A program made the translations under genes and the position numbers. A stretch of 37,722 nucleotides of DNA. It comes from a virus. The stretch covers positions 1 to 37,722 of the IMG/VR virus record IMGVR_UViG_3300045988_130501; one strand, written 5' to 3'. The notes beneath the pieces are model-generated. The model was not told the origin of the DNA, searched no databases, and was given only the letters and a program-made list of their open reading frames with translations. Positions 6,787-33,003 of the stretch are shown here, in pieces. Positions within the stretch are counted from its first letter, which is position 1; each line of letters starts with the position of its first letter.

Positions 6787-7395
6787 TTAAAATGGGAAAT
6801 CGTTTTCACTAAATTCAACAGTATTCCCAAAGTCGCTAAATGGTTCATTATTTTTGCTATTAATATATTCCTCGTAATCTACGTAAGAATTATCAAGTTT
6901 TTTAACTTTAGGAATTTTAATATTATCAACTTTATCAATACTTCTAAATTCTCTTAATTTATTGACAGTTTTTAGCTCTCCTGCTTGGCTCTCATATTCT
7001 TCCATTCCAAATACTAATCCTATTTTTTTGCCTGTTAATTGTTCCCAATTTTTGTTCCAATCAAATTGGCAACCATTAGAATTTTCATAAGCTGTAATAA
7101 ATGCCTTAAGCATTTTAACTTGGTTTTCTTCTTCCCCTAGTGGAACATATTTAATTGCTGAATTGCTCCATTTTCTATCAATTCTAGTGTCATTTTTATA
7201 TTGTTCTTTAAAATATTCAGGTTGCTTGTCATCTTTAGCAGTATCTACGCTAACTTTTAAAGAAGTCTTGCCACTTTGTGGGCTAGTATATTCTTCTGCT
7301 TTCATTATTATTCCTTTGTGACCACCTAATTCAATTGGAGTAAAATCAAATTCCATTACTTCTACATTATCATAATTGCTTGGTTTCTTTATCAT
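6787..7395 (-). CDS. DUF669-type SSB-like protein with an SSB-like acidic C-terminal tip
   Basis: FTPIELGGHKGIIMKAEEYTS...SLKVSV pattern. The C-terminus SENDFPF resembles the DDDIPF tail of SSBs. Confidence 0.55.
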   Translation of the reverse strand: MIKKPSNYDNVEVMEFDFTPIELGGHKGIIMKAEEYTSPQSGKTSLKVSVDTAKDDKQPEYFKEQYKNDTRIDRKWSNSAIKYVPLGEEENQVKMLKAFITAYENSNGCQFDWNKNWEQLTGKKIGLVFGMEEYESQAGELKTVNKLREFRSIDKVDNIKIPKVKKLDNSYVDYEEYINSKNNEPFSDFGNTVEFSENDFPF

Positions 7396-8828
7396 TATTT
7401 TTCTTCCTCATCTTTCTTTTCTTCTTCTTTATTTATTTCATAATATTCACAGATAGTATCATCTACTAATTTTAAATCATTGTCAATTAATTCTTCTTCA
7501 AACATTCCCATAGGTGTTTTAACAATATCATTTCCAGCTGTTTTAGTTCTAAATTGGAACTTGCCATTTTCATTAATTGCTCTTAATACTATTGTATAGA
7601 GTCCCTCAACGCAACATTGATTTGACAACATTTTTCCAACGGTCTTAACTCCTATATTTCCAAATTCATCAATTTCTTCATGGCTCATAAGATAGACTCT
7701 TTTATCTCCGTCAAGATTTTTAATAAAATCAATCAATTTCCAATAATTTAAAGCGATATCTGTAAACTTGCCATAACCTGTTTCTTTTGCCTTTTTCATC
7801 ATTTCCATAGTTAATAAATAATTACTATCATCTATAACTATAATATCTTTTGGTGTTTCTTGAATAAACTTTTTAATTAATTCATAATCACAACTTTCAA
7901 GCCCTGCTTGTCCCCCTTTAAAAGGTAATCTTTTTGCAAGCGGATTTACTAAACTATATTCTTCTTTCTTTAAATTTCTTAAACTGGCACTCTTACCACT
8001 ACCAGAGTGTCCTATAATTAATACTGGAATACATTTTCCCATTTTTCTTTCCCTCCTCATTTCTAGCATTAATTCTGCTTTTTCTTTTTCATAAGGTATT
8101 TGAACAACCTCATAATTGTCTTTATTTTCGGTTAAATATACTATTTCAGTTCTTAACACTGGAATACCTAACAACTCTTGCAATATGTATTTATAAATGC
8201 TTAATTGTATTTTATAATGCTCATAAGAATTATCTAACGTATCTCGAAATGGTATCATCATATATTTTTTATAAACTTTCTTATCAGGATTATCATAATA
8301 GCCTTCCATGTATGAGTTAGTTTTATAATCAACTATTACAACACCTTTATCAACTTTATCATAAAATAAATGGTCGATAGCCGAACTAATATTTGCCCAC
8401 TCAACACCAATTAATAATTCATCTTTGATGTGTATATATCGGTCTTTATAATCATTATAATAATTCAATGAATGATGTTTTATTTTTTCAACTACTTCAA
8501 GATATTCTTTTGAGTTATCAAAAGGTCTTAAATACCATTCTTCACCACTAAATAATGACTGAGTGTATTCATGTATTGTTGTACCTTTTTCACAACTAAA
8601 ATCACGTTTATAATGCCATTCTTCAAGTATTTTAGAAACTTCCTTATTTTGTTTTTGTGCTACCATTTCAGCAACTTTTTGCTCATCAAATTTATTAGCA
8701 TAAAGTCCAATAAGTGTAGTAACGCCAATCCCAACTCTTTTGCCATTACAATAATAAGTATGAGTATCTTCTTCAAAAGTATATTTATCAAACGCCTTTA
8801 ATTTTTGCTTAACTTCTTCAAGTGTCAT
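7395..8828 (-). CDS. Fusion protein: N-terminal PD-(D/E)XK (RecB/Cas4-like) nuclease plus C-terminal Sak4-like P-loop ATPase
   Basis: Nuclease motifs IDHLF, VIVDYKT and QLSIYKY. Walker A IIGHSGSGKSA and Walker B IIVIDDSNY. The probable ATG is at 8828 (MTLEEVKQ); the track ORF begins at TTG 8849. Confidence 0.65.
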   Translation of the reverse strand: MTLEEVKQKLKAFDKYTFEEDTHTYYCNGKRVGIGVTTLIGLYANKFDEQKVAEMVAQKQNKEVSKILEEWHYKRDFSCEKGTTIHEYTQSLFSGEEWYLRPFDNSKEYLEVVEKIKHHSLNYYNDYKDRYIHIKDELLIGVEWANISSAIDHLFYDKVDKGVVIVDYKTNSYMEGYYDNPDKKVYKKYMMIPFRDTLDNSYEHYKIQLSIYKYILQELLGIPVLRTEIVYLTENKDNYEVVQIPYEKEKAELMLEMRRERKMGKCIPVLIIGHSGSGKSASLRNLKKEEYSLVNPLAKRLPFKGGQAGLESCDYELIKKFIQETPKDIIVIDDSNYLLTMEMMKKAKETGYGKFTDIALNYWKLIDFIKNLDGDKRVYLMSHEEIDEFGNIGVKTVGKMLSNQCCVEGLYTIVLRAINENGKFQFRTKTAGNDIVKTPMGMFEEELIDNDLKLVDDTICEYYEINKEEEKKDEEEK

Positions 8829-9841: not shown

Positions 9842-9904
9842 ATTTTATATTAAAAGCTTTATTTCATTTTTTTGATTTTAGCTTTATTCCCCTTTCTGAA
9901 TAAA

Positions 9905-10120
9905 TTATTCTTTTGTTTCACATTCTTTTAGTATCCTTGACAATTCTCTGTCTTGACTGTCATTTCTTATGTAAAGAAATTTTGATAAAATTTTATAGGG
10001 CATTTGTCTTTTACCATACTCGTAATTTCTATATGCTCTCAGGGATATATTTAATAAATCAGCCATTTGCTGTTGTGTATATCTATTTTCAATCCTATAC
10101 TGTTTCAATTTACTAACCAT
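9905..10120 (-). CDS. XRE-family HTH transcriptional regulator (Cro-like)
   Basis: LKQYRIENRYTQQQMADLLNISLRAYRNYEYGKRQMP is a classic HTH_3 pattern. Confidence 0.8.
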   Translation of the reverse strand: MVSKLKQYRIENRYTQQQMADLLNISLRAYRNYEYGKRQMPYKILSKFLYIRNDSQDRELSRILKECETKE

Positions 10121-10123
10121 AAA

Positions 10124-10318
10124 TTACAAATCCTTTTCTATTTTGCATATTAATAAAATATTGCTAAACAATATTATAAATAAAATTAATATATTCTGCC
10201 TATAATCATTTATTGTGACTATTTTCTTCATTAAATTTGGCAAATTTAGTATTACTATTAAATCAATGATAAATAGCATTAAGTATTTCACCCATTTTTT
10301 TAGTCTTATTTTTTTCAT
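10124..10318 (-). CDS. Small membrane protein (64 aa)
   Basis: ORF track; two hydrophobic segments. Confidence 0.45.
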   Translation of the reverse strand: MKKIRLKKWVKYLMLFIIDLIVILNLPNLMKKIVTINDYRQNILILFIILFSNILLICKIEKDL

Positions 10319-10320
10319 TT

Positions 10321-10530
10321 TTATATCCTCCTATATTCAAATTCGTATCCTAAATTATATTCTGTTGTAATTCCATATTCTTCTAGTTCTTTAATTAACT
10401 CTTTAATGCCTTTATGGTATTCTTGACTCAACTTATAATGCCTTTCTTCCCATCTATCAACCATCTCGAGGTAAAAGTCTTTTTCAGCTAGAACATTTAA
10501 TTCTTGTTTTATCTTTTCTATTTCATTCAT
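10321..10530 (-). CDS. Hypothetical early protein (69 aa)
   Basis: GGAGGAG SD; first gene after the early promoter. Confidence 0.55.
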   Translation of the reverse strand: MNEIEKIKQELNVLAEKDFYLEMVDRWEERHYKLSQEYHKGIKELIKELEEYGITTEYNLGYEFEYRRI

Positions 10531-10552
10531 TTTATCTCCTCCTTACAATACT

Positions 10553-10581
10553 AATATAACCCATATTGAGTAACATGTCAA
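10553..10581 (-). promoter_or_regulatory. Sigma-A-type early promoter
   Basis: In the minus sense: TTGACA, 17 nt, TATATT. Confidence 0.65.
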
Positions 10582-10703
10582 GAAAAAAATAAAGAAAATT
10601 ATCTGAAAATGAAAACAAGAATAGGAGTAGATAATTTTCCTTAATCACTAGGGGTTTTCTAGTGTCTATTTGATTATAACATATTTATCATTAAAAATCA
10701 ATT

Positions 10704-10779
10704 TGGAGGGCGAAGTGAGATTTGAACTCACGATATGGAAGTTGCAGTTCCACTTCTTTAGCCACTTGAATATTCGCCC
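10704..10779 (-). tRNA. tRNA-Cys (anticodon GCA), CCA encoded
   Basis: Folds by hand into a cloverleaf. Acceptor GGGCGAA/UUCGCCC, anticodon arm UGGAA-CUGCAAC-UUCCA, T arm GUGAG-UUCAAAU-CUCAC. The U73 discriminator and A13-A22/G15-G48 features are typical of bacterial tRNA-Cys. Confidence 0.9.
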
Positions 10780-10793
10780 ATTTAAAGAAGAAA

Positions 10794-26233: not shown

Positions 26234-26803
26234 TTAATTACCGTATTTTTCTCTTAAAGCACCTGCTAAATCTTGTGCTTCATTTTCAGGGGCTTTATTT
26301 TGATGGTCGCCACCTAAATTGAAACCATTTTGTTGCTTGTTTTCTTGTTCAAATAAATAATCATGAGTAGTTTTAATACTCTTTAATTGTTCATCTAAAC
26401 CGCCAACAACATAATTGCCATCTTTTTCTTCATAAGTTAGTTTTTCGCTATCTAGAAGTTTCTCTAGCAATTTAATATCTTTTGCTTTAGAGTTTGTTAA
26501 TGCTTTATCTAACGCAATAGACTTTTTGAAAGTTTCCACTTCCTTACTTCCCTCGGCTTTTCCTAAATCGTATTGCTCTTGCTTGATAGCCTCGACATCG
26601 ATTTCTTCTAACTCTTTTATCTTTTCGTTCAAATTATTAACGACACCATCTTTTACTTTTAAGTCGTTTTTCAGTGTGGCTACCTCAGTTTTATGGCTTT
26701 CAATTAGTTCACCATTTTTTGCCATTAAAGTATCGACAATTTCTTTTTTTTTTGTTTCATCTTCAACAACATTAAGTAATTCTTCTAAAAACTTTCTATT
26801 CAT
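26234..26803 (-). CDS. Scaffolding protein (GP20-like)
   Basis: Acidic coiled-coil protein directly upstream of the capsid gene. Confidence 0.7.
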   Translation of the reverse strand: MNRKFLEELLNVVEDETKKKEIVDTLMAKNGELIESHKTEVATLKNDLKVKDGVVNNLNEKIKELEEIDVEAIKQEQYDLGKAEGSKEVETFKKSIALDKALTNSKAKDIKLLEKLLDSEKLTYEEKDGNYVVGGLDEQLKSIKTTHDYLFEQENKQQNGFNLGGDHQNKAPENEAQDLAGALREKYGN

Positions 26804-26908
26804 TTTCTTCCCTCCATACGATTTTATACGAGTTTTTCATCTCTTTGAATTTTAGAAAAGTTTCACTTTTACGATGTGATAATCATGGTATATTATCTAC
26901 CTGAATAG

Positions 26909-26937
26909 AGTATACCATATTTACTAAAAAAAATCAA
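26909..26937 (-). promoter_or_regulatory. Candidate promoter for the scaffold/capsid/tail operon
   Basis: In the minus sense: TTGATT, 17 nt, TGgTATACT. It is overlapped by the inverted repeat GGTATA...TATACC (26887-26916). Confidence 0.4.
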
Positions 26938-27040
26938 ATACACAAAATTAAGAGTAATATAAGAATAATATAAATTATAATATAAATAATTAATAATAAT
27001 AAAATAATAATAAATAATATATATTTCTATTTTCATTTTC

Positions 27041-27079
27041 CATATGTTATTCATATGTTTTTCATATCTTTAACATATC
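27041..27079. repeat. Iteron array B: four CATAT(G/C) units phased at 11 bp
   Basis: Units start at 27041, 27052, 27063 and 27074. The 20-mer attttcattttccatatgtt (27029-27048) is identical to 6155-6174. Confidence 0.75.
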
Positions 27080-27194
27080 TTTTTTTTAATTCCTTGATTT
27101 TCCCTTGCTTTTCAACAAATCTTGATTTTTTAAATGGCTATTTTTTAATTTTATATTTTTAAGCAAAATTAAATTTTTTTTGCAAAAAAAACAC

Positions 27195-27218
27195 AAAAAA
27201 ACAACCATTTAAGGTTGC
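27195..27218 (-). terminator. Rho-independent terminator of the ORF-free unit
   Basis: In the minus sense: GCAACC-TTAAAT-GGTTGT followed by T7. Confidence 0.65.
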
Positions 27219-27780
27219 TTATAGTAAATATAAATAGGAATTGAACCTATTACAACTAGTTTTAAACGTTAGCACACCAGCTATATATTTACTTTGTATC
27301 TTTAATAGATACTATACTAATGATATAAAGGTTTCTAAATTAAACATCACGCTCAGTTTAATTCGTTGCGTTAGACCAAGTGTTTCAATTAACCTTTAAC
27401 TCGGTGTTATTGTTTATATATCATCAGTACACTACCTGTTAAAGGTAGTACCACTACTCTATATTATTCACTTAACACCAACGAAAGAAATTAAGTTTTC
27501 ATATATTTCGTGTAGACGACTTCGCTCGTTGTCTAGGGTATTAGTCGTTTTCCCTACCTCTAAAATAAGATTCAATACTTAACTTTGACATGTCAGCCAT
27601 TAATTCTTTACAAACACAGGATTTTATGTGTTTTCTTCACATTTCAGTGCCTTATAGACACCAACAGAACAAAATTTAAAGGCGTAAGAAAAGAAAAATA
27701 ATTAAAGCCAATAAATATTGCTATGTTGCTACCTATAAAGGTAACAAGCAAGGAAATTGTAAAAACACTTTTTCCACTAC
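27195..27780 (-). ncRNA. Candidate large structured ncRNA (~585 nt), family unassigned (ROOL/GOLLD-like?)
   Basis: Bounded by a near-consensus promoter and an intrinsic terminator. It has no plausible ORF, contains many hairpins and a 9-bp long-range helix, and is richer in G+C than its flanks. Confidence 0.55.
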
Positions 27781-27784
27781 ATTA

Positions 27785-27813
27785 ATTATATCACATTAAT
27801 TTAGTTTTTGCAA
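27785..27813 (-). promoter_or_regulatory. Sigma-A-type promoter of the ORF-free unit
   Basis: In the minus sense: TTGCAA, 17 nt, TGaTATAAT. It starts immediately after the stop codon of the minor capsid gene. Confidence 0.6.
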
Positions 27814-28893
27814 TTATTTATTGTATTTTGCAACCCAAGTTTTATCGTAATCAACTTCTAAACCTTTGCTTTTAGAATACTGCCTATATTTCATCTGACT
27901 ATTCCTTAGTTCTTTTTTCTTTTTGCCCAATATATCAGTATTATTTGTTCCTTTTAATGATAAGATTTCTTTCTTTTTACTTCTAACAGCTCTTGCATAA
28001 TAATTTTGTTGCTGTCGTTCATTATAATTTTTTGTTATTTCTTGAATAGTTCCATGTTCATTCCCAAATATAGTTTTTTGCTTTTTGTTGTCAAACTCAG
28101 GTCGCCAATCATAATTTACAATATGGTTGCAATTAAATTCTTCAGTAAGATATTCATACTTTTTAAATTCTTTTAAACTCATAATAACATCATCAATGGG
28201 ATGATGACTAGGACGACAGGTAGGACTATGCCCTATAACGACACAATTAGCCCCTATTTCATCGCCAACTTGCTTGGCAATATCATTAGCTGTTTGAGTT
28301 AAACTTGTCATTAGATTGCGTTTAACAGCCACTTCAAGAGATGTATTTCTTCCCACTTTATCTTTTAAAGTTATTCCTTTTTCAGCAAGTGCATTTATAG
28401 TGCTTTTCATTGCACTAGAATAATCAAAAGAACCACTTGCAACTTTAGTATATAAATCATCTAAAGCATTGATATAGGCTTTTTTGCTAAAAAATGCTAT
28501 TGATTTAGTCATATTCTTTAAATCTTTGTCGGTTCTTCTATAAATACTATCAACTAGAGTTTGCACTTCTTGACTTATTTCATAATCTAGTCCTTTAGCC
28601 TCGTAAGTGTCTTTATAGCCTTTCATTTGCTCGTTTTGTAATTCTTCAAATAATTGTAGTAATTGTTTCTTTCGCTCCCTAGAAAGCCCATTTGCCTTAT
28701 TTAAAGCCTCATTAAATACTTCTTTGCCACCTTGCCTAGCAAGAACTCTCATTTGTGCTTTAGTAAATGAAGATATATCCTCATTTTGTTGTAACTTCTT
28801 AATTATTGATGATGTTAAGTCCTGATTTAATTTGCTAAAAATTTCAACAACTTTGTTTTTTTCAAATTCACTCATTCTTTGTGGTGTTATCAT
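27814..28893 (-). CDS. Minor capsid protein 2 (head morphogenesis, SPP1 gp7/Mu F-like role)
   Basis: 359 aa. The central NLMTSLTQTANDIAKQVGDEIGANCVVIGHSPTCRPSHHPID pattern is typical of Phage_min_cap2-type proteins. Confidence 0.65.
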   Translation of the reverse strand: MITPQRMSEFEKNKVVEIFSKLNQDLTSSIIKKLQQNEDISSFTKAQMRVLARQGGKEVFNEALNKANGLSRERKKQLLQLFEELQNEQMKGYKDTYEAKGLDYEISQEVQTLVDSIYRRTDKDLKNMTKSIAFFSKKAYINALDDLYTKVASGSFDYSSAMKSTINALAEKGITLKDKVGRNTSLEVAVKRNLMTSLTQTANDIAKQVGDEIGANCVVIGHSPTCRPSHHPIDDVIMSLKEFKKYEYLTEEFNCNHIVNYDWRPEFDNKKQKTIFGNEHGTIQEITKNYNERQQQNYYARAVRSKKKEILSLKGTNNTDILGKKKKELRNSQMKYRQYSKSKGLEVDYDKTWVAKYNK

Positions 28894-28904
28894 TTAATCA
28901 CTCC

Positions 28905-28979
28905 TTATTTTTTTTCACTTATTGCAGTTATTATAATTAATGTTATACAAATTATTAATGTTATTATTATACTATTCAT
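28905..28979 (-). CDS. Micro-ORF 4: 24-aa hydrophobic peptide
   Basis: MNSIIITLIICITLIIITAISEKK; its ATG overlaps the upstream TAG (ATGAATAG). Confidence 0.4.
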   Translation of the reverse strand: MNSIIITLIICITLIIITAISEKK

Positions 28980-29094
28980 TTTCTTTCCTTTCTTTAATAA
29001 GCGTTATAATTACAACAACTATACTTATTAATAATATTGCCATAATAGGTAATATAAAATATTTTAAAATCATATACATTATTGCATTTATCAT
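28972..29094 (-). CDS. Micro-ORF 3: 40-aa single-TM peptide
   Basis: GGAGG SD; MINAIMYMILKYFILPIMAILLISIVVVIITLIKERKENE. Confidence 0.5.
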   Translation of the reverse strand: MINAIMYMILKYFILPIMAILLISIVVVIITLIKERKENE

Positions 29095-29171
29095 TCTTTA
29101 CCTCCTACAATAATTCCCATAAATAAAGCACCTGAAATAACTCCTACGATTAAGCCCAACAAGAAGTTCAT
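29091..29171 (-). CDS. Micro-ORF 2: 26-aa Gly-rich TM peptide
   Basis: MNFLLGLIVGVISGALFMGIIVGGKE; ATGA overlaps on both sides. Confidence 0.45.
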   Translation of the reverse strand: MNFLLGLIVGVISGALFMGIIVGGKE

Positions 29172-29278
29172 TTTTTATCACGACCTATTATTAATAAAAT
29201 TATATATAATATTGCTACACCTAATCCTATAAAAGCTCCTATAACTTCTATTTTTGCTCTTAGTTCTAACCAAAACAT
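29168..29278 (-). CDS. Micro-ORF 1: 36-aa single-TM peptide
   Basis: AGGAG SD; MFWLELRAKIEVIGAFIGLGVAILYIILLIIGRDKK. Confidence 0.5.
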   Translation of the reverse strand: MFWLELRAKIEVIGAFIGLGVAILYIILLIIGRDKK

Positions 29279-29291
29279 TATTTATCATCTC

Positions 29292-30394: not shown

Positions 30395-30586
30395 TTACTC
30401 ATCACTCTCTACTTTCTTTAATAAATCATTCAATTTAAAATAATATTCCAGTACATTTTTTAGTTCATCTCTATTTAATTTTATATTGCTTTGACTATGA
30501 AACATTACCTGATTATCTTTACGTATCACTACGTGATTATTGCTTGCTTGTGATATTTCGTAACCCTTATAATTAATCTTTAACAT
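30395..30586 (-). CDS. Hypothetical protein (63 aa from ATG 30586)
   Basis: The track ORF starts at GTG 30595. ATG 30586 has an AAGGTG SD. Confidence 0.5.
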   Translation of the reverse strand: MLKINYKGYEISQASNNHVVIRKDNQVMFHSQSNIKLNRDELKNVLEYYFKLNDLLKKVESDE

Positions 30587-30725
30587 TACTATCACCTTCT
30601 AATTTTTTTAGCATTTCATTATATTTTTCAAATAAATCTTCCAAATACATACCATAGTTATTAAATGCTGTCTTTTTTGTATAATAAAATTCTATTAATT
30701 TAAAGCATACTTCTTCTTTATTCAT
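30573..30725 (-). CDS. Hypothetical protein (50 aa; below the track cutoff)
   Basis: MNKEEVCFKLIEFYYTKKTAFNNYGMYLEDLFEKYNEMLKKLEGDSNVKD fills an otherwise empty gap. Confidence 0.4.
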   Translation of the reverse strand: MNKEEVCFKLIEFYYTKKTAFNNYGMYLEDLFEKYNEMLKKLEGDSNVKD

Positions 30726-30849
30726 TACTATCACTTCCTTGTTCTAAACTTTTTCTTATTTCGTAATTAGTTTTCAATTCGTCAATTAGCATACATACAA
30801 AGGAAATATCTATTATAATTAACAATATACAGCCACTTATTTCTATCAT
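30718..30849 (-). CDS. Small membrane protein (43 aa; below the track cutoff)
   Basis: ATGA overlap with the upstream gene; MIEISGCILLIIIDISFVCMLIDELKTNYEIRKSLEQGSDSNE. Confidence 0.4.
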   Translation of the reverse strand: MIEISGCILLIIIDISFVCMLIDELKTNYEIRKSLEQGSDSNE

Positions 30850-32450: not shown

Positions 32451-32452
32451 GA

Positions 32453-32590
32453 TTATTTCTCCTTTTTCATTTTTTCTTCAATTGCCTTTAATATAAAATC
32501 TTTAATAGTCATATTTCTTTCATGTGCTTTTGTTTCAATCTCTTTTAAATATTCCTCTGTAAATTGTAAAGGATATGTTTTTATTTTCAT
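32453..32590 (-). CDS. Ribbon-helix-helix (CopG/Arc-like) protein, 45 aa
   Basis: GGAGGTG SD then ATG 32590: MKIKTYPLQFTEEYLKEIETKAHERNMTIKDFILKAIEEKMKKEK. Confidence 0.55.
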   Translation of the reverse strand: MKIKTYPLQFTEEYLKEIETKAHERNMTIKDFILKAIEEKMKKEK

Positions 32591-32627
32591 TTGTTCACCT
32601 CCTAAAAATATATAAGCAAGAGAAGTT

Positions 32628-32723
32628 TTATACTTCTCTTACATATTTTTTGTTTTCTTGTAGTTCTTTAAGTTTATTTATTATTTCACTTAATGAACCT
32701 TTAAGAATCAATCTTGTTTTCAT
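32628..32723 (-). CDS. Leader micro-ORF (31 aa) ending inside a 9-bp hairpin
   Basis: GAGGGAG SD; MKTRLILKGSLSEIINKLKELQENKKYVREV. Its last codons form the AAGAGAAGU/ACUUCUCUU stem (32618-32640). Confidence 0.35.
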   Translation of the reverse strand: MKTRLILKGSLSEIINKLKELQENKKYVREV

Positions 32724-32747
32724 ATCTCTCCCTCACTTTCTATATTA

Positions 32748-32776
32748 ATTATAGCATAAGTTAGTTAGTTAGTCAA
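32748..32776 (-). promoter_or_regulatory. Consensus sigma-A promoter of the accessory operon
   Basis: In the minus sense: TTGACT, 17 nt, TATAAT. Confidence 0.65.
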
Positions 32777-32786
32777 TAGTTTTTGA

Positions 32787-32813
32787 TAAAAAAAGAAAGA
32801 TTTTACTCTTTCT
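32787..32813 (-). terminator. Rho-independent terminator ending the packaging/portal transcription unit
   Basis: In the minus sense: AGAAAGA, 6-nt loop, TCTTTCT, followed by a T-run. It overlaps the last codons of the 66-aa ORF. Confidence 0.55.
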
Positions 32814-33003
32814 CACATAATTTTTTTTCAAGTTCTTTAAAATTGTATTCTTTTGGCTCTTTTAAACTTGAAACATAAACTCCTGTTCCTATTACAACAA
32901 GTACATTTTTCTTTTTAGAACTATTATATTTTATTTCTAAGTTCGCTATTTCATAATCATTTGCCTTTTTTAAATAGTAAACATTATTCGACTGGTATAT
33001 CAT
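32803..33003 (-). CDS. Hypothetical protein (66 aa from ATG 33003)
   Basis: GAGG SD before ATG 33003; overlaps the end of the 567-aa gene by 20 nt. Confidence 0.45.
   Translation of the reverse strand: MIYQSNNVYYLKKANDYEIANLEIKYNSSKKKNVLVVIGTGVYVSSLKEPKEYNFKELEKKLCEKE

Follow-up and report, generated by a model that had tools for sequence, protein, structure and literature searches.

Large ornate RNAs of bacteria and their phages (ROOL, GOLLD, OLE, raiA) are rare, and with each of them RNA biology has gained a new field that still awaits explanation. ROOL and GOLLD, which reportedly go back to the Weinberg studies of 2009 and 2017, are large (0.5-0.8 kb) structured RNAs of unexplained function that occur in phages and prophages of Bacillota, often beside tRNA genes. 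The covariance model for ROOL describes a conserved multi-junction fold with pseudoknots, that for GOLLD a conserved 3' domain. Bacterial Y RNAs of the YrlA type, said to be the subject of the work of Chen et al. in 2014 and to associate with Ro60/Rsr, carry a tRNA-like domain (D- and T-arms with a degenerate anticodon arm) on a long stem built from its 5' and 3' flanking sequences; they are often present in multiple tandem copies, and some are phage-encoded. Enclosing helices are also familiar from rRNA operons, where leader-trailer processing helices surround a functional RNA within a polycistronic precursor, while in clusters of the phage T4 type tRNAs are mixed with small stable RNAs and homing endonuclease genes invade. 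The pRNA of phi29 (~120-174 nt), typical of phi29-like podoviruses with protein-primed genomes, multimerises hand in hand through two complementary loops that covary between relatives. Finally, phage morons, a concept of Hendrix and colleagues, encode proteins in their classical form. For GOLLD, tRNAs have been reported in the linker, and both ROOL and GOLLD form homo-oligomeric cages according to cryo-EM (PMC12286853).

The window analyzed here is a whole stretch of 37,722 nt of viral DNA, an IMG/VR record of a human-gut siphophage. An earlier note, made from its letters alone, had singled out a gap flanked by the minor-capsid gene (Phage_min_cap2 in Pfam, E = 6e-39) and the scaffold gene (Phage_scaffold, E = 2e-21) as ORF-free and had proposed that it encodes a large structured RNA. 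The first of these claims is borne out. In the minus sense the three frames of 26804-27813 contain 31, 22 and 33 stop codons, and since all three stop types occur in every frame, no alternative genetic code opens the interval; independent public gene calls for the same phage place no gene between the two. The longest minus-sense ATG ORF is indeed a 19-codon one (MADMSKLSIESYFRGREND) without a Shine-Dalgarno sequence, and among its 16 homologues the ATG is missing in four, the N-terminus differs in two more and the tail is frameshifted in two. The stops and this behaviour of the ORF in homologues together led us to reject a hidden ORF or an alternative code.

Consensus scanning located both of the transcription signals that had been noticed by eye. 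The sigma-70-type promoter (27785-27813, minus strand; 10 of 12 matches plus TG) combines a -35 element TTGCAA (27813-27808), a 17-nt spacer and an extended -10 element TGaTATAAT (27793-27785), with transcription predicted to start near 27778. It is kept in three related loci (L001, L002 and L003), although the minor-capsid gene of L003 is just 79% identical. At the other end, at 27195-27218 on the same strand, an intrinsic terminator GCAACC-UUAAAU-GGUUGU plus U-run was recognized (scanned as AAGCAACC-TTAAAT-GGTTGTTT followed by a T-run, 27220-27199); three terminator-like sites were found in 3 kb versus 0.7 expected. Its stem carries a compensatory change in L001 (CAACC/GGTTG to CAAAC/GTTTG) and, in L002, a G.U that is able to pair in the minus sense only. 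A terminator follows the last repeated unit (see below) at 38 of 89 family loci as opposed to one of 76 controls. The scaffold gene has a separate extended -10 promoter, 260 nt beyond the RNA terminator. The interval had also been described as less A+T-rich than its flanks, and this holds clearly for the 3' side (GC of 0.28-0.35 in the interval versus 0.14-0.16 in the downstream spacer) but not for the upstream gene (about 0.26-0.27). The minus strand folds with an MFE of -147.7 kcal/mol as compared to -117.3 ± 5.9 for dinucleotide shuffles (z = -5.15); the corresponding value for the plus strand is z = -3.82.

Two short anchors derived from the window RNA led to about 95 phage contigs in IMG/VR and to some 12 contigs with prophages of uncultured low-GC gut Bacilli, the host group of the family. 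Two of the loci, L243 and L142, lie in genomes of Clostridium sp. CAG:1000 and UMGS900. Common to them is a unit in which hairpin A (consensus CUAYC-loop-GGUAG) is directly followed by a 13-17-bp helix around a variable insert, with hairpin B (GURYY-UAUAA/UAUUAAA-RRYAC) directly after the 3' strand of this helix. We refer to the helix as the clamp (P) and to the insert as its cargo. The RNAs of the family are arrays of one to five such clamp units of ~60 nt each, with cargos of 7-160 nt. When a genome collection was scanned with the bare 16-mer, about 116 chance matches and just four true ones were obtained, many of the former in one conserved flanking context of Rhodobacteraceae and other marine Alphaproteobacteria; with a longer pattern, nine of nine matches fell in gut Bacilli. 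Elsewhere in the window no further units were found (allowing one mismatch added only noise outside the locus), and its other ORF-poor gaps hold small genes and terminators, with no structured RNA.

Several lines of comparative evidence point to selection on the clamp at the RNA level. In 43 of the 47 anchor-defined loci, the 14 nt preceding hairpin B pair at 13-14 of 14 positions with the 14 nt that follow a GGUAGC-type hairpin, and at least nine different covarying strand pairs are represented. Across 102 distinct units, all 13 tested P-helix pairs change on both sides, and the covariation score of 1.02 (versus 0.26 ± 0.014) was reached by none of 500 shuffles. Because these 102 units were chosen by a pairing requirement, the percentage paired is circular, and the independent supports are the pairing at anchor-defined loci, the shuffle and strand counts, and RNAalifold, which recovers the clamp helix without being given it. 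Against 171 units on the gene strand, the unit finder returned 0, 5 and 3 in dinucleotide shuffles and just 12 when the opposite strand was read, an asymmetry of the kind that G.U pairs are expected to cause in an RNA. Covariation extends to the stems of both hairpins. As an alternative, RNAalifold pairs the 3' arm of hairpin A with the 5' arm of hairpin B, and the three-hairpin form may therefore not be the sole fold. The A and B loops are complementary in a class-specific manner (3.98 versus 3.27 ± 0.065, a difference owed largely to two clamp classes and AU-rich palindromic loops), and this complementarity could mediate loop-loop contacts, of which the loop-loop covariation is only suggestive. 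Overall, the non-coding status, the conserved signals and the strong strand-specific covariation over about 100 related loci support the earlier note in its reading of a phage-encoded large structured RNA. The comparisons show ~27778-27195 (minus strand) to be a gene for a non-coding RNA of ~584 nt, equipped with a dedicated sigma-70-type promoter and intrinsic terminator; the predicted product is an array of clamp units with exchangeable inserts from a family uncatalogued in Rfam 15. Taken jointly with the account of cargo and mechanism given below, we consider this explanation probable.

Read from its 5' end, the window RNA begins with a hairpin, continues with unit 1, a pseudoknot module that covaries, and unit 2, and closes with a tRNA-like element and the terminator (all coordinates refer to the minus strand). 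The 5' leader hairpin GGAAA...UUUCC (27752-27775) appears in both the MFE and centroid folds, and its sequence is conserved in L001 and L003. Both units show hairpin A followed by a helix of at least 13 bp, with hairpin B immediately 3' of it. In unit 1, hairpin A (GUUACC-UUUAUA-GGUAGC, 27728-27745) is of a type common to about 45 loci, across which its arms covary (GCAGUC/GGCUGC, GCAAUC/GGUUGC and others). The clamp helix P1 (27663-27727), present in the MFE fold, joins AACAUAGCAAUAUUUA (27727-27712) to UAAAUUUUGUUCUGUU (27678-27663) around a 33-nt insert (27711-27679) and is paired at 14 of 16 positions in the window, with two mismatches; in L047 and L142 it reads AACAGAGCAAUAUU/AAUUUUGUUCUGUU, paired at 13 of 14. 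Hairpin B of this unit (GGUGUC-UAUAA-GGCAC, 27647-27662) is the exact 16-mer GGUGUCUAUAAGGCAC that served as the first anchor and was found in 47 IMG/VR stretches, 44 of them in family context; its variants (GACAC, GGUGC, GGUGCU..GGCAC) retain the stem.

The linker between the units, module X (27450-27646), has homologs in 16 loci and comprises a hairpin at 27633-27612, an H-type pseudoknot and a hairpin at 27511-27481. Stem S1 of the pseudoknot pairs 27556-27552 with 27538-27534 and stem S2 pairs 27548-27544 with 27520-27516; the latter is paired in 100% of cases, with compensatory changes at three of its five pairs (ACGAC/GUCGU, GCAAC/GUUGC, GCUGC/GUAGC, ACUGC/GCAGU). As the matches of a module X motif scan lie almost exclusively within family loci, we rejected the idea of an independent riboswitch-like element. 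Unit 2 starts with a class II hairpin A (ACUACC-UUUAACA-GGUAGU, 27431-27449) whose stem covaries across units, followed by P2 (27314-27430), identified by the unit finder, in which 27430-27417 and 27327-27314 form 14 bp (two of them G.U) around a structured 89-nt cargo (27416-27328). A helix within this cargo changes from ACCGAGU/ACUUGGU to GUCGAGU/ACUUGAC in L023. The sequence CUGAUGA in P2 had suggested a hammerhead, an idea dropped by eye because the motif is not conserved (relatives read CUAGUGA or CUGAAUA) and Rfam finds no ribozyme. The covarying hairpin B (GUAUC-UAUUAAA-GAUAC, 27296-27312) together with its preceding A makes up the second anchor (AGUAUCUAUUAAAGAUAC, 27313-27296), exact in 77 IMG/VR stretches.

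All helices listed in the earlier note exist at their positions, with conservation that differs from helix to helix. ACTACC/GGTAGT and GTATC/GATAC, which correspond to hairpins A and B of unit 2, are supported by covariation, and AAACACA/TGTGTTT and ACGAAA/TTTCGT are conserved in the comparative data. On the other hand, TAGAC/GTCTA is not conserved and competes with covarying helices; the same is true of the proposed 9-bp long-range helix (27401-27409 with 27473-27481) when the window is compared with L023. The 10-nt palindrome TGACATGTCA, put forward as a possible dimerization site, is replaced by TGACATCTCA in most homologs. The RNA is structured, as had been proposed, but instead of forming a monolithic fold it strings together repeated clamp units whose inserts can be exchanged.

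Among closely related phages, conservation is higher in the RNA than in the genes on either side. The window and L001 are identical over 401 of 401 nt from the promoter to the 5' strand of P2 (95.7% and 97.5% identity in the flanking genes), and at the exact position of the P2 cargo L001 has an unrelated one. The cargo of window unit 2 reappears in L023, there within a class I clamp. L002 shares the cargo (100%) and the 3' part (98.5%) with the window and differs in the 5' half of the RNA locus, which carries a NUMOD4/HNH_3 gene for an HNH homing endonuclease. Such exact swaps at clamp-helix boundaries between near-identical phages, a collection of 152 cargos that reduces to 128 distinct sequences and 78 clusters, and the occurrence of one cargo cluster in both clamp classes indicate that the clamps are conserved, whereas the structured domains that serve as cargos are hypervariable and change places as cassettes. 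Minimal, nearly cargo-less units are also maintained (e.g. L025 with a 7-nt insert). The presence of the HNH gene in L002 led us to consider a group I or group II intron, which was rejected, as no intron family was detected at E ≤ 10 and the minor-capsid gene has an uninterrupted ORF, covering Pfam positions 2-364 of 366, whose end lies ahead of the promoter. In relatives with minor-capsid proteins of 21-35% identity, the corresponding position is a gap of 62-586 nt with no unit, which identifies the RNA as an insertion. In this ~37.7-kb genome the RNA gene forms a self-contained moron, with the minor-capsid gene on one side and the scaffold gene on the other. Like other phage morons, it is a promoter-to-terminator unit placed between two genes of a conserved module and absent from distant relatives; unlike the classical ones, it encodes a structured RNA.

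The link to tRNA takes several forms. The tRNA-like element of the window (27223-27293), detected as a weak match to the tRNA clan (best score 19.5 bits, E = 0.61), has an acceptor-like helix AGUAAAUAUA/UAUAUUUACU, a D-arm UAGC-UGGUGU-GCUA with GG in the loop, and a canonical T-arm AUAGG-UUCAAUU-CCUAU with a 5-bp stem and a UUCRANY loop; its anticodon region is degenerate and lacks a canonical arm, for which a 5-bp stem and a 7-nt loop would be required. ARAGORN did not call it, the sole call in the window being a tRNA-Cys at 10704-10779. The element recurs as the cargo of a class I clamp in L057, and is also found in L001 and L018. About 12 cargos (about a tenth) resemble tRNAs whose acceptor stem is extended by the clamp helix, while most of the 78 clusters show no tRNA features. 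Callable tRNAs are enclosed in just two to three of about 150 units, and the role of a tRNA carrier therefore cannot be general; beside the arrays, at distances of up to 400 nt, there are 28 tRNAs on the same strand. The tRNA-like domain on a flank-formed stem and the tandem copies are reminiscent of YrlA RNAs. However, most clamp cargos are not tRNA-like, hairpins A and B are foreign to Y RNAs, and the Rfam Y-RNA models gave no match in the window at gathering score or in the region at E ≤ 10. Neither the ORF sizes in the window nor a Pfam scan of six of its proteins pointed to a Ro60 gene. With rRNA leader-trailer helices and the T4 cluster the arrays share an enclosing flank helix, tRNA neighbors and a homing endonuclease gene; in contrast to the rRNA helices, the clamps are of 13-17 bp and capped by conserved hairpins on both sides, and the cargos are not rRNA and mostly not tRNA.

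These affinities leave room for other readings of the locus. Its size (~0.58 kb), phage location, tRNA neighbors and occasional embedded tRNAs would suit a divergent ROOL or GOLLD member, and GOLLD sometimes holds covalent tRNAs in a variable region, being likewise, with ROOL, large, structured, phage- or prophage-encoded and tRNA-adjacent. However, the covariance models of Rfam 15, those for ROOL, GOLLD and other large ncRNAs included, assigned the unit to no family, with the window searched at gathering score and the 1.1-kb region 26800-27900 at E ≤ 10; here and in related loci (20 at gathering score, 10 at E ≤ 0.5) they returned only tRNAs and chance matches. The window RNA is thus not ROOL or GOLLD by homology, and its tandem clamp units with swappable inserts differ from the single conserved folds of those two RNAs, which makes the chance of such membership vanishingly small. 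The earlier note had left a choice between a ROOL/GOLLD-like RNA and a new class, and it is the new class that survives. BLASTN against GenBank phages gave nothing relevant with the region or with a two-class synthetic clamp consensus (E ≤ 1), so that no carrier is known among cultured phages, and no description of the clamp-unit family was found in the literature, including the IMG/VR structured-RNA catalogue paper. It is highly improbable that the product is instead the 19-aa micropeptide: the ORF is retained in 10 of the 16 module X homologs, but it covers 60 of about 584 nt, and the six homologs with a lost ATG or a broken frame keep the RNA core. The comparison for a conserved small ORF accordingly came out against coding, since substitutions are mostly non-synonymous, and an ND-to-SN change is at the same time a compensated change of the pseudoknot.

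The tRNA connection could be explained by a decaying gene cluster. Each unit would then be a tRNA gene or pseudogene whose leader and trailer pair, transcribed together with real tRNAs, and the non-tRNA remainder would lack a function of its own. The tRNA-like cargos with the clamp as acceptor stem, the few real tRNAs within units and the many beside arrays, and the canonical T-arm of the window element all fit. We nevertheless regard decay as unlikely, given the mostly non-tRNA cargos, the strong structural selection on clamps and the pseudoknot module, the upkeep of cargo-less minimal units and a conservation among close relatives that exceeds that of the flanking genes. A role at the DNA level, with the repeats serving in recombination or cassette exchange, in packaging or as a structure of single-stranded DNA and the RNA being incidental, would agree with cassettes swapping exactly at repeat boundaries, with the homing endonuclease in L002 and with the position of the array just upstream of the terminase genes in most phages. 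The window array, though, is about 9 kb from the terminase genes, no recombinase is associated, and G.U-based strand specificity, a dedicated promoter and covariation of both terminator and pseudoknot speak for RNA, so that we hold this role to be very unlikely. Equally little credit can be given to a cis-acting leader of the late genes, such as a put-like antitermination RNA or another 5' regulator. The usual site, between a gene for a sigma-70-region-4-type regulator or a DUF1064 gene and the terminase genes, and the place of the window copy upstream of the scaffold and major-capsid genes would favor a leader; yet the window RNA closes with a strong terminator, terminators are frequent at the arrays, the scaffold gene has its own promoter, and hypervariable cargos are unexpected for a cis-regulator.

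We return to the array of clamp units, which we infer to be most likely a stable scaffold that would present or release structured RNA domains tied to tRNA biology. Host RNA polymerase would make a stable, highly structured transcript in which each clamp allows its cargo to fold independently, while the terminal hairpins would shield the RNA from 5' and 3' exonucleases. The leader-trailer-type helix, which resembles the one flanking rRNA, is a possible site of double-strand-specific cleavage. By independent cargo folding, end protection and possible helix cleavage, one transcript could present or release several structured domains, tRNA mimics among them, which would act on host tRNA or RNA-processing functions. 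For a classical substrate of RNase III, the clamp helix P is too short unless it stacks on a hairpin. An antisense or guide RNA was rejected, as complementarity to the phage's own genome is no greater than that of shuffles; within 1.28 Mb of related phage DNA, cargos matched other arrays only.

More tentatively, the family may represent a new RNA device, a conserved clamp scaffold, possibly self-associating, that displays rapidly exchanged cartridges of structured RNA and may distract or soak up, as a multi-decoy or sponge, those defenses and processing enzymes of the host that are directed at tRNA or other RNA. Among the cartridges would be real tRNAs and tRNA mimics along with dozens of folds of unknown type. 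The A and B loops, paired and matched by class, may drive assembly in the manner of pRNA or ROOL. Like phi29 pRNA, the array is an RNA of a phage structural module with two mutually complementary loops; the two show no homology, however, the terminase and portal of the window phage are of siphovirus type, and the covariation between the loops is suggestive only.

The clamp family embodies a different design principle among large phage RNAs, one of a small repeated motif and cassette exchange of the enclosed RNA domains between near-identical phages. Its arrays offer a natural scaffold for the presentation of arbitrary structured RNAs, and the cargos add up to some 80 unknown RNA folds, a catalogue whose entries are evidently of use to the phages that carry them. 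They also provide a fresh angle on the attraction of large RNAs to phage tRNA regions, in a host group, uncultured gut Bacilli with reduced genomes, that is almost wholly uncharacterized.

In the window, whose coordinates follow the plus strand 5' to 3', the genes at the RNA locus lie on the minus strand, and a gap of 1,010 nt separates the stop codon of the upstream gene (27814-28893; Phage_min_cap2 in Pfam, E = 6e-39) from the start codon of the downstream one (26234-26803; Phage_scaffold, E = 2e-21). Stop codons of all three kinds occur in every minus-sense frame of the gap (31, 22 and 33 per frame), so recoding opens no frame, and the longest ATG ORF has 19 codons, as had been read. The same phage is present on 11 public contigs (e.g. 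a 37,688-nt human-gut scaffold), and independent gene calls on that scaffold leave the same 1 kb without genes. Consensus scans also recovered the claimed promoter (TTGCAA-17-TATAAT with a preceding TG, 27813-27785, minus strand) and terminator (an 8-bp hairpin with a T-run, 27220-27199, minus strand), both of which are conserved by sequence comparison. The minimum free energy of the 591-nt interval on the minus strand is -147.7 kcal/mol vs -117.3 ± 5.9 in dinucleotide shuffles (z = -5.15); the fold z of the plus strand is -3.82. Stop counts, gene calls, signal scan and folding thus confirm the basic observation of the earlier note, an ORF-free promoter-to-terminator unit. Its claim of a lower A+T content is borne out on the 3' side only (GC 0.28-0.35 vs 0.14-0.16 in the following spacer), the preceding gene being at ∼0.26-0.27. 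That spacer (26900-27100, 14-16% GC), located past the RNA terminator and ahead of the scaffold promoter, is of low complexity with TTATTA-like repeat runs, and a 53-codon low-complexity frame listed within it probably does not represent a gene. An extended -10 promoter of its own, TTGATT-17-TGGTATACT (26937-26909, minus strand), precedes the scaffold gene (PF06810, formerly Phage_GP20), whose 5' UTR (26817-26885, minus strand) weakly matches the Rfam GP20-b cis-regulatory model (21.6 bits, E = 0.057; the gathering score is 36.2) and may represent a divergent GP20-b leader.

The window minor-capsid protein, used as a query, identified three close relatives in IMG/VR. The entire RNA region is present in L001 (96% amino acid identity in the minor capsid); in L002 (95%) the promoter is retained along with 300 nt at the 3' end, the 5' half being different, and in L003 (79%) conservation is limited to patches. 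Two conserved patches served as exact search anchors, GGTGTCTATAAGGCAC (47 IMG/VR stretches, 44 of them with a recognisable common context) and AGTATCTATTAAAGATAC (77 stretches). A side-by-side comparison of these loci showed that all are built from one repeated unit, which starts with a hairpin A (e.g. GCUACC-UUUAUA-GGUAGC), followed without a spacer by 13-17 nt that pair with 13-17 nt located 7-160 nt downstream, and ends, again without a spacer, with a hairpin B (GGUGUC-UAUAA-GGCAC or GUAUC-UAUUAAA-GAUAC).

The clamp helix was assessed in several ways. When the 14 nt preceding hairpin B were compared, with no pairing filter, to the 600 nt upstream, in 43 of 47 cases the best ungapped partner paired at 13-14 of 14 positions and abutted the 3' end of a GGUAGC-type hairpin, with at least 9 different strand pairs (such as AUAGAGUAGAUAUA/UAUAUCUAUUCUAU, AUAUUGAGUAAAUA/UAUUUACUUGAUAU, AUAGAAUAAAUAAA/UUUAUUUAUUCUAU and ACAGAAUAGGUAUA/UAUAUCUAUUCUGU). 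A generic finder (hairpin, helix of 13 bp or more containing no more than 3 G.U pairs, second hairpin) returned 171 units in 102 loci (195 kb) vs 0, 5 and 3 in dinucleotide shuffles and 12 on the opposite strand, an asymmetry expected if G.U pairs matter, i.e. if the structure resides in the gene-strand RNA. When 102 distinct units are aligned with N6 in place of the insert, each of the 13 clamp pairs varies on both sides, and the covariation score of 1.02 (vs 0.26 ± 0.014; reached in none of 500 shuffles) collapses on sliding the partner by 1-3 columns. The 99.8% pairing of these units is circular, because they were chosen for pairing; the pair-type diversity, the anchor-based comparison and the generic finder are not. 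Both hairpin stems covary as well (third pair C-G, U-G, A-U or U-A in A; U-A, G-C or C-G in B).

Given the alignment as its sole input, RNAalifold predicted the same clamp helix and, in 97% of the units (drawn from about 95 loci), lengthened it by 5 bp at the cost of both hairpins, AGGUA on the 3' side of the hairpin A stem pairing with URUCU on the 5' side of the hairpin B stem; in the window these arms are 27733-27729 with 27661-27657 and 27436-27432 with 27311-27307. This would be an alternative fold, mutually exclusive with hairpins A and B, and may reflect either a conformational switch or a mere by-product of hairpin similarity. A and B resemble each other as if diverged from a single hairpin. 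Loops of the same unit are more complementary (3.98) than with permuted B loops (3.27 ± 0.065; maximum 3.53 in 1,000 permutations). We keep a loop-loop contact as a lead only, since the signal comes mostly from two clamp classes (UUAU:AUAA and UUAA:UUAA or UAGU:AUUA) and AU-rich palindromes.

The window RNA (all features on the minus strand) has a predicted start at about 27778, a 5' hairpin (27775-27752) and unit 1, composed of hairpin A (27745-27728), helix P1 (27727-27712 with 27678-27663, 14 of 16 paired, around a 33-nt insert) and hairpin B (27662-27647). A 197-nt linker, module X (27646-27450), leads to unit 2, with hairpin A (27449-27431), helix P2 (27430-27417 with 27327-27314, around an 89-nt cargo) and hairpin B (27312-27296); a tRNA-like element (27293-27223) and the terminator (27218-27195) follow. 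Module X, common to the window and 16 other loci, contains the AAACACA/UGUGUUU helix of the earlier note as an invariant hairpin, as well as an H-type pseudoknot whose second stem (27548-44 with 27520-16) shows 100% pairing, with 3 of 5 pairs compensatory (ACGAC/GUCGU, GCAAC/GUUGC, GCUGC/GUAGC, ACUGC/GCAGU). Other pairings proposed from the single sequence did not survive comparison: the TAGAC/GUCUA helix competes with both pseudoknot stems and is broken in 4 of 11 sequences with zero covariation; the complementarity behind a 9-bp long-range helix between a linker segment and the start of the unit-2 cargo is lost in L023, a locus with the same linker and cargo; and most homologues have UGACAUCUCA in place of the palindrome UGACAUGUCA. 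A local cargo helix does covary between the window and L023 (ACCGAGU/ACUUGGU to GUCGAGU/ACUUGAC). The 19-codon ORF sits in module X and has no Shine-Dalgarno sequence; among 16 homologues, 4 lack its ATG, another 2 have a different N-terminus and in 2 a frameshift alters the tail, while an ND-to-SN change is exactly the compensated change in the pseudoknot stem. In agreement with the earlier reading, the RNA region is non-coding.

The enclosed cargo is highly diverse: 152 inserts (up to 200 nt) reduce to 128 distinct sequences, which BLAST groups into 78 clusters, some of them found in both clamp classes. Roughly 12 of the inserts resemble tRNAs: they have a D- and a T-arm, and the clamp helix takes the place of the acceptor stem in lengthened form (L051, L236, L057, L036 and L208). 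The window element at 27224-27292 gives a weak Rfam tRNA-clan match (E ≤ 10) because of its canonical T-arm, ARAGORN calls no tRNA there, and the same element is clamp cargo in L057. ARAGORN finds only 2-3 tRNAs inside units, and 28 same-strand tRNAs no more than 400 nt away from an array (Arg-CCU, Leu-UAA, Cys, Trp, Gln). On this sequence evidence, the clamp architecture is strand-specific, covarying and repeated, its cargo hypervariable but structured, and the family linked to tRNA. Unlike other family members, where tRNAs usually flank the array, the window has its only canonical tRNA, tRNA-Cys(GCA) (10704-10779, minus strand), far from the RNA locus, in a ∼950-nt region (9842-10793) without ORFs of at least 75 aa. 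Downstream of first-unit hairpin B, four other loci (L033, L021, L037, L017) carry UAGGG...CCCUA, then a hairpin rich in GC, and lastly a tRNA-Arg(CCU) whose CCA is encoded; the gene for the terminase large subunit comes directly next. The arrangement may be a modified pseudoknot module that has become joined to a true tRNA.

Comparison with L001 shows recent and precise cassette exchange. From promoter through P2 5' strand the two sequences agree at 401 of 401 positions, and they are 97% identical from the P2 3' strand through the terminator, with flanking genes at 95.7% and 97.5%; the enclosed unit-2 cargo is unrelated. L002 displays the converse pattern. There, with flanking genes 95% identical to those of the window, a NUMOD4 + HNH_3 (Pfam) homing-endonuclease gene (7174-7515, plus strand) lies inside the RNA gene, replacing its 5' 366 nt, and is predicted to be driven by the RNA's upstream promoter, reminiscent of phage tRNA clusters invaded by endonuclease genes.

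In most family members, early/late-regulator genes (DUF1064, a sigma-70 region-4 protein) border the array on one side and terminase genes (Terminase_2, terminase large subunit) on the other; an array inside the capsid module, as in the window lineage, is unusual. In 38 of 89 family loci an intrinsic terminator comes after the last unit, vs 1 of 76 control windows. Of the related phages, to which the earlier note had looked, L001 has the entire region and L002 and L003 have parts of it, but phages with 21-35% identical minor-capsid proteins have no unit and only 62-586 nt at the same position; the RNA gene is therefore an inserted promoter-to-terminator moron. Three other stretches between the portal and minor-capsid genes (28894-29291, 30395-30845 and 32451-32983, minus strand; fold z -0.7, +1.8 and -3.2) have no ORFs of at least 75 aa and are probably small protein morons, given their small ORFs with Shine-Dalgarno sequences, intrinsic terminators and a TTGACT-17-TATAAT promoter. 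A scan of genome contigs with a 25-nt specific pattern gave 9, all from gut MAGs or draft genomes. Five bear names of Bacilli (Candidatus Onthocola and four uncultured Bacilli MAGs); the others are Clostridium sp. CAG:1000, "Tenericutes" UMGS900 and two with no name beyond "bacterium". These organisms are the likely hosts.

Of the two identities suggested by the earlier note, a ROOL/GOLLD-like RNA or a new class, the comparisons favor the latter. GOLLD and ROOL are of similar size and likewise occur in phages near tRNAs, but the clamp-array RNA fails both defining models: Rfam 15 (4,227 models) matched only the tRNA-Cys (10707-10779) in the whole window, and at E ≤ 10 the 26800-27900 region gave sub-threshold chance matches with no ROOL, GOLLD, intron, tmRNA, Y RNA or ribozyme. 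YrlA-type Y RNAs likewise set a tRNA-like domain on a long stem, and pRNA pairs complementary loops; however, neither shares homology or a common gene context with the clamp arrays. Nothing points to a guide or antisense role, as complementarity between the RNA and its own genome does not exceed chance, and cargo matches in 1.28 Mb of related phage DNA are confined to other arrays. BLASTN against 50,697 GenBank phage records gave no match to the RNA, and our literature searches found no description of a clamp-unit array, albeit fragments may be among the short candidate structured RNAs of the IMG/VR catalogue (PMC10690425). We regard the predicted RNA as very probably a genuine structured RNA of a new family.

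How such an array might work is a far more tentative matter. The clamp would act as a frame in which each enclosed domain folds independently, protected by one 5' and one 3' hairpin, and its helix, of leader-trailer type, could be cut to free that domain in the manner of rRNA operons. The matched A/B loops and the alternative extended helix would leave room for intra- or intermolecular switching. This scheme of scaffolding, stabilisation and processing is one we consider possible though rather doubtful; combined with the well-supported new family, it makes the overall explanation only somewhat favored. Under it, the array would provide the phage with a means to express several structured RNAs, tRNA mimics included, from one late or constitutive transcript.
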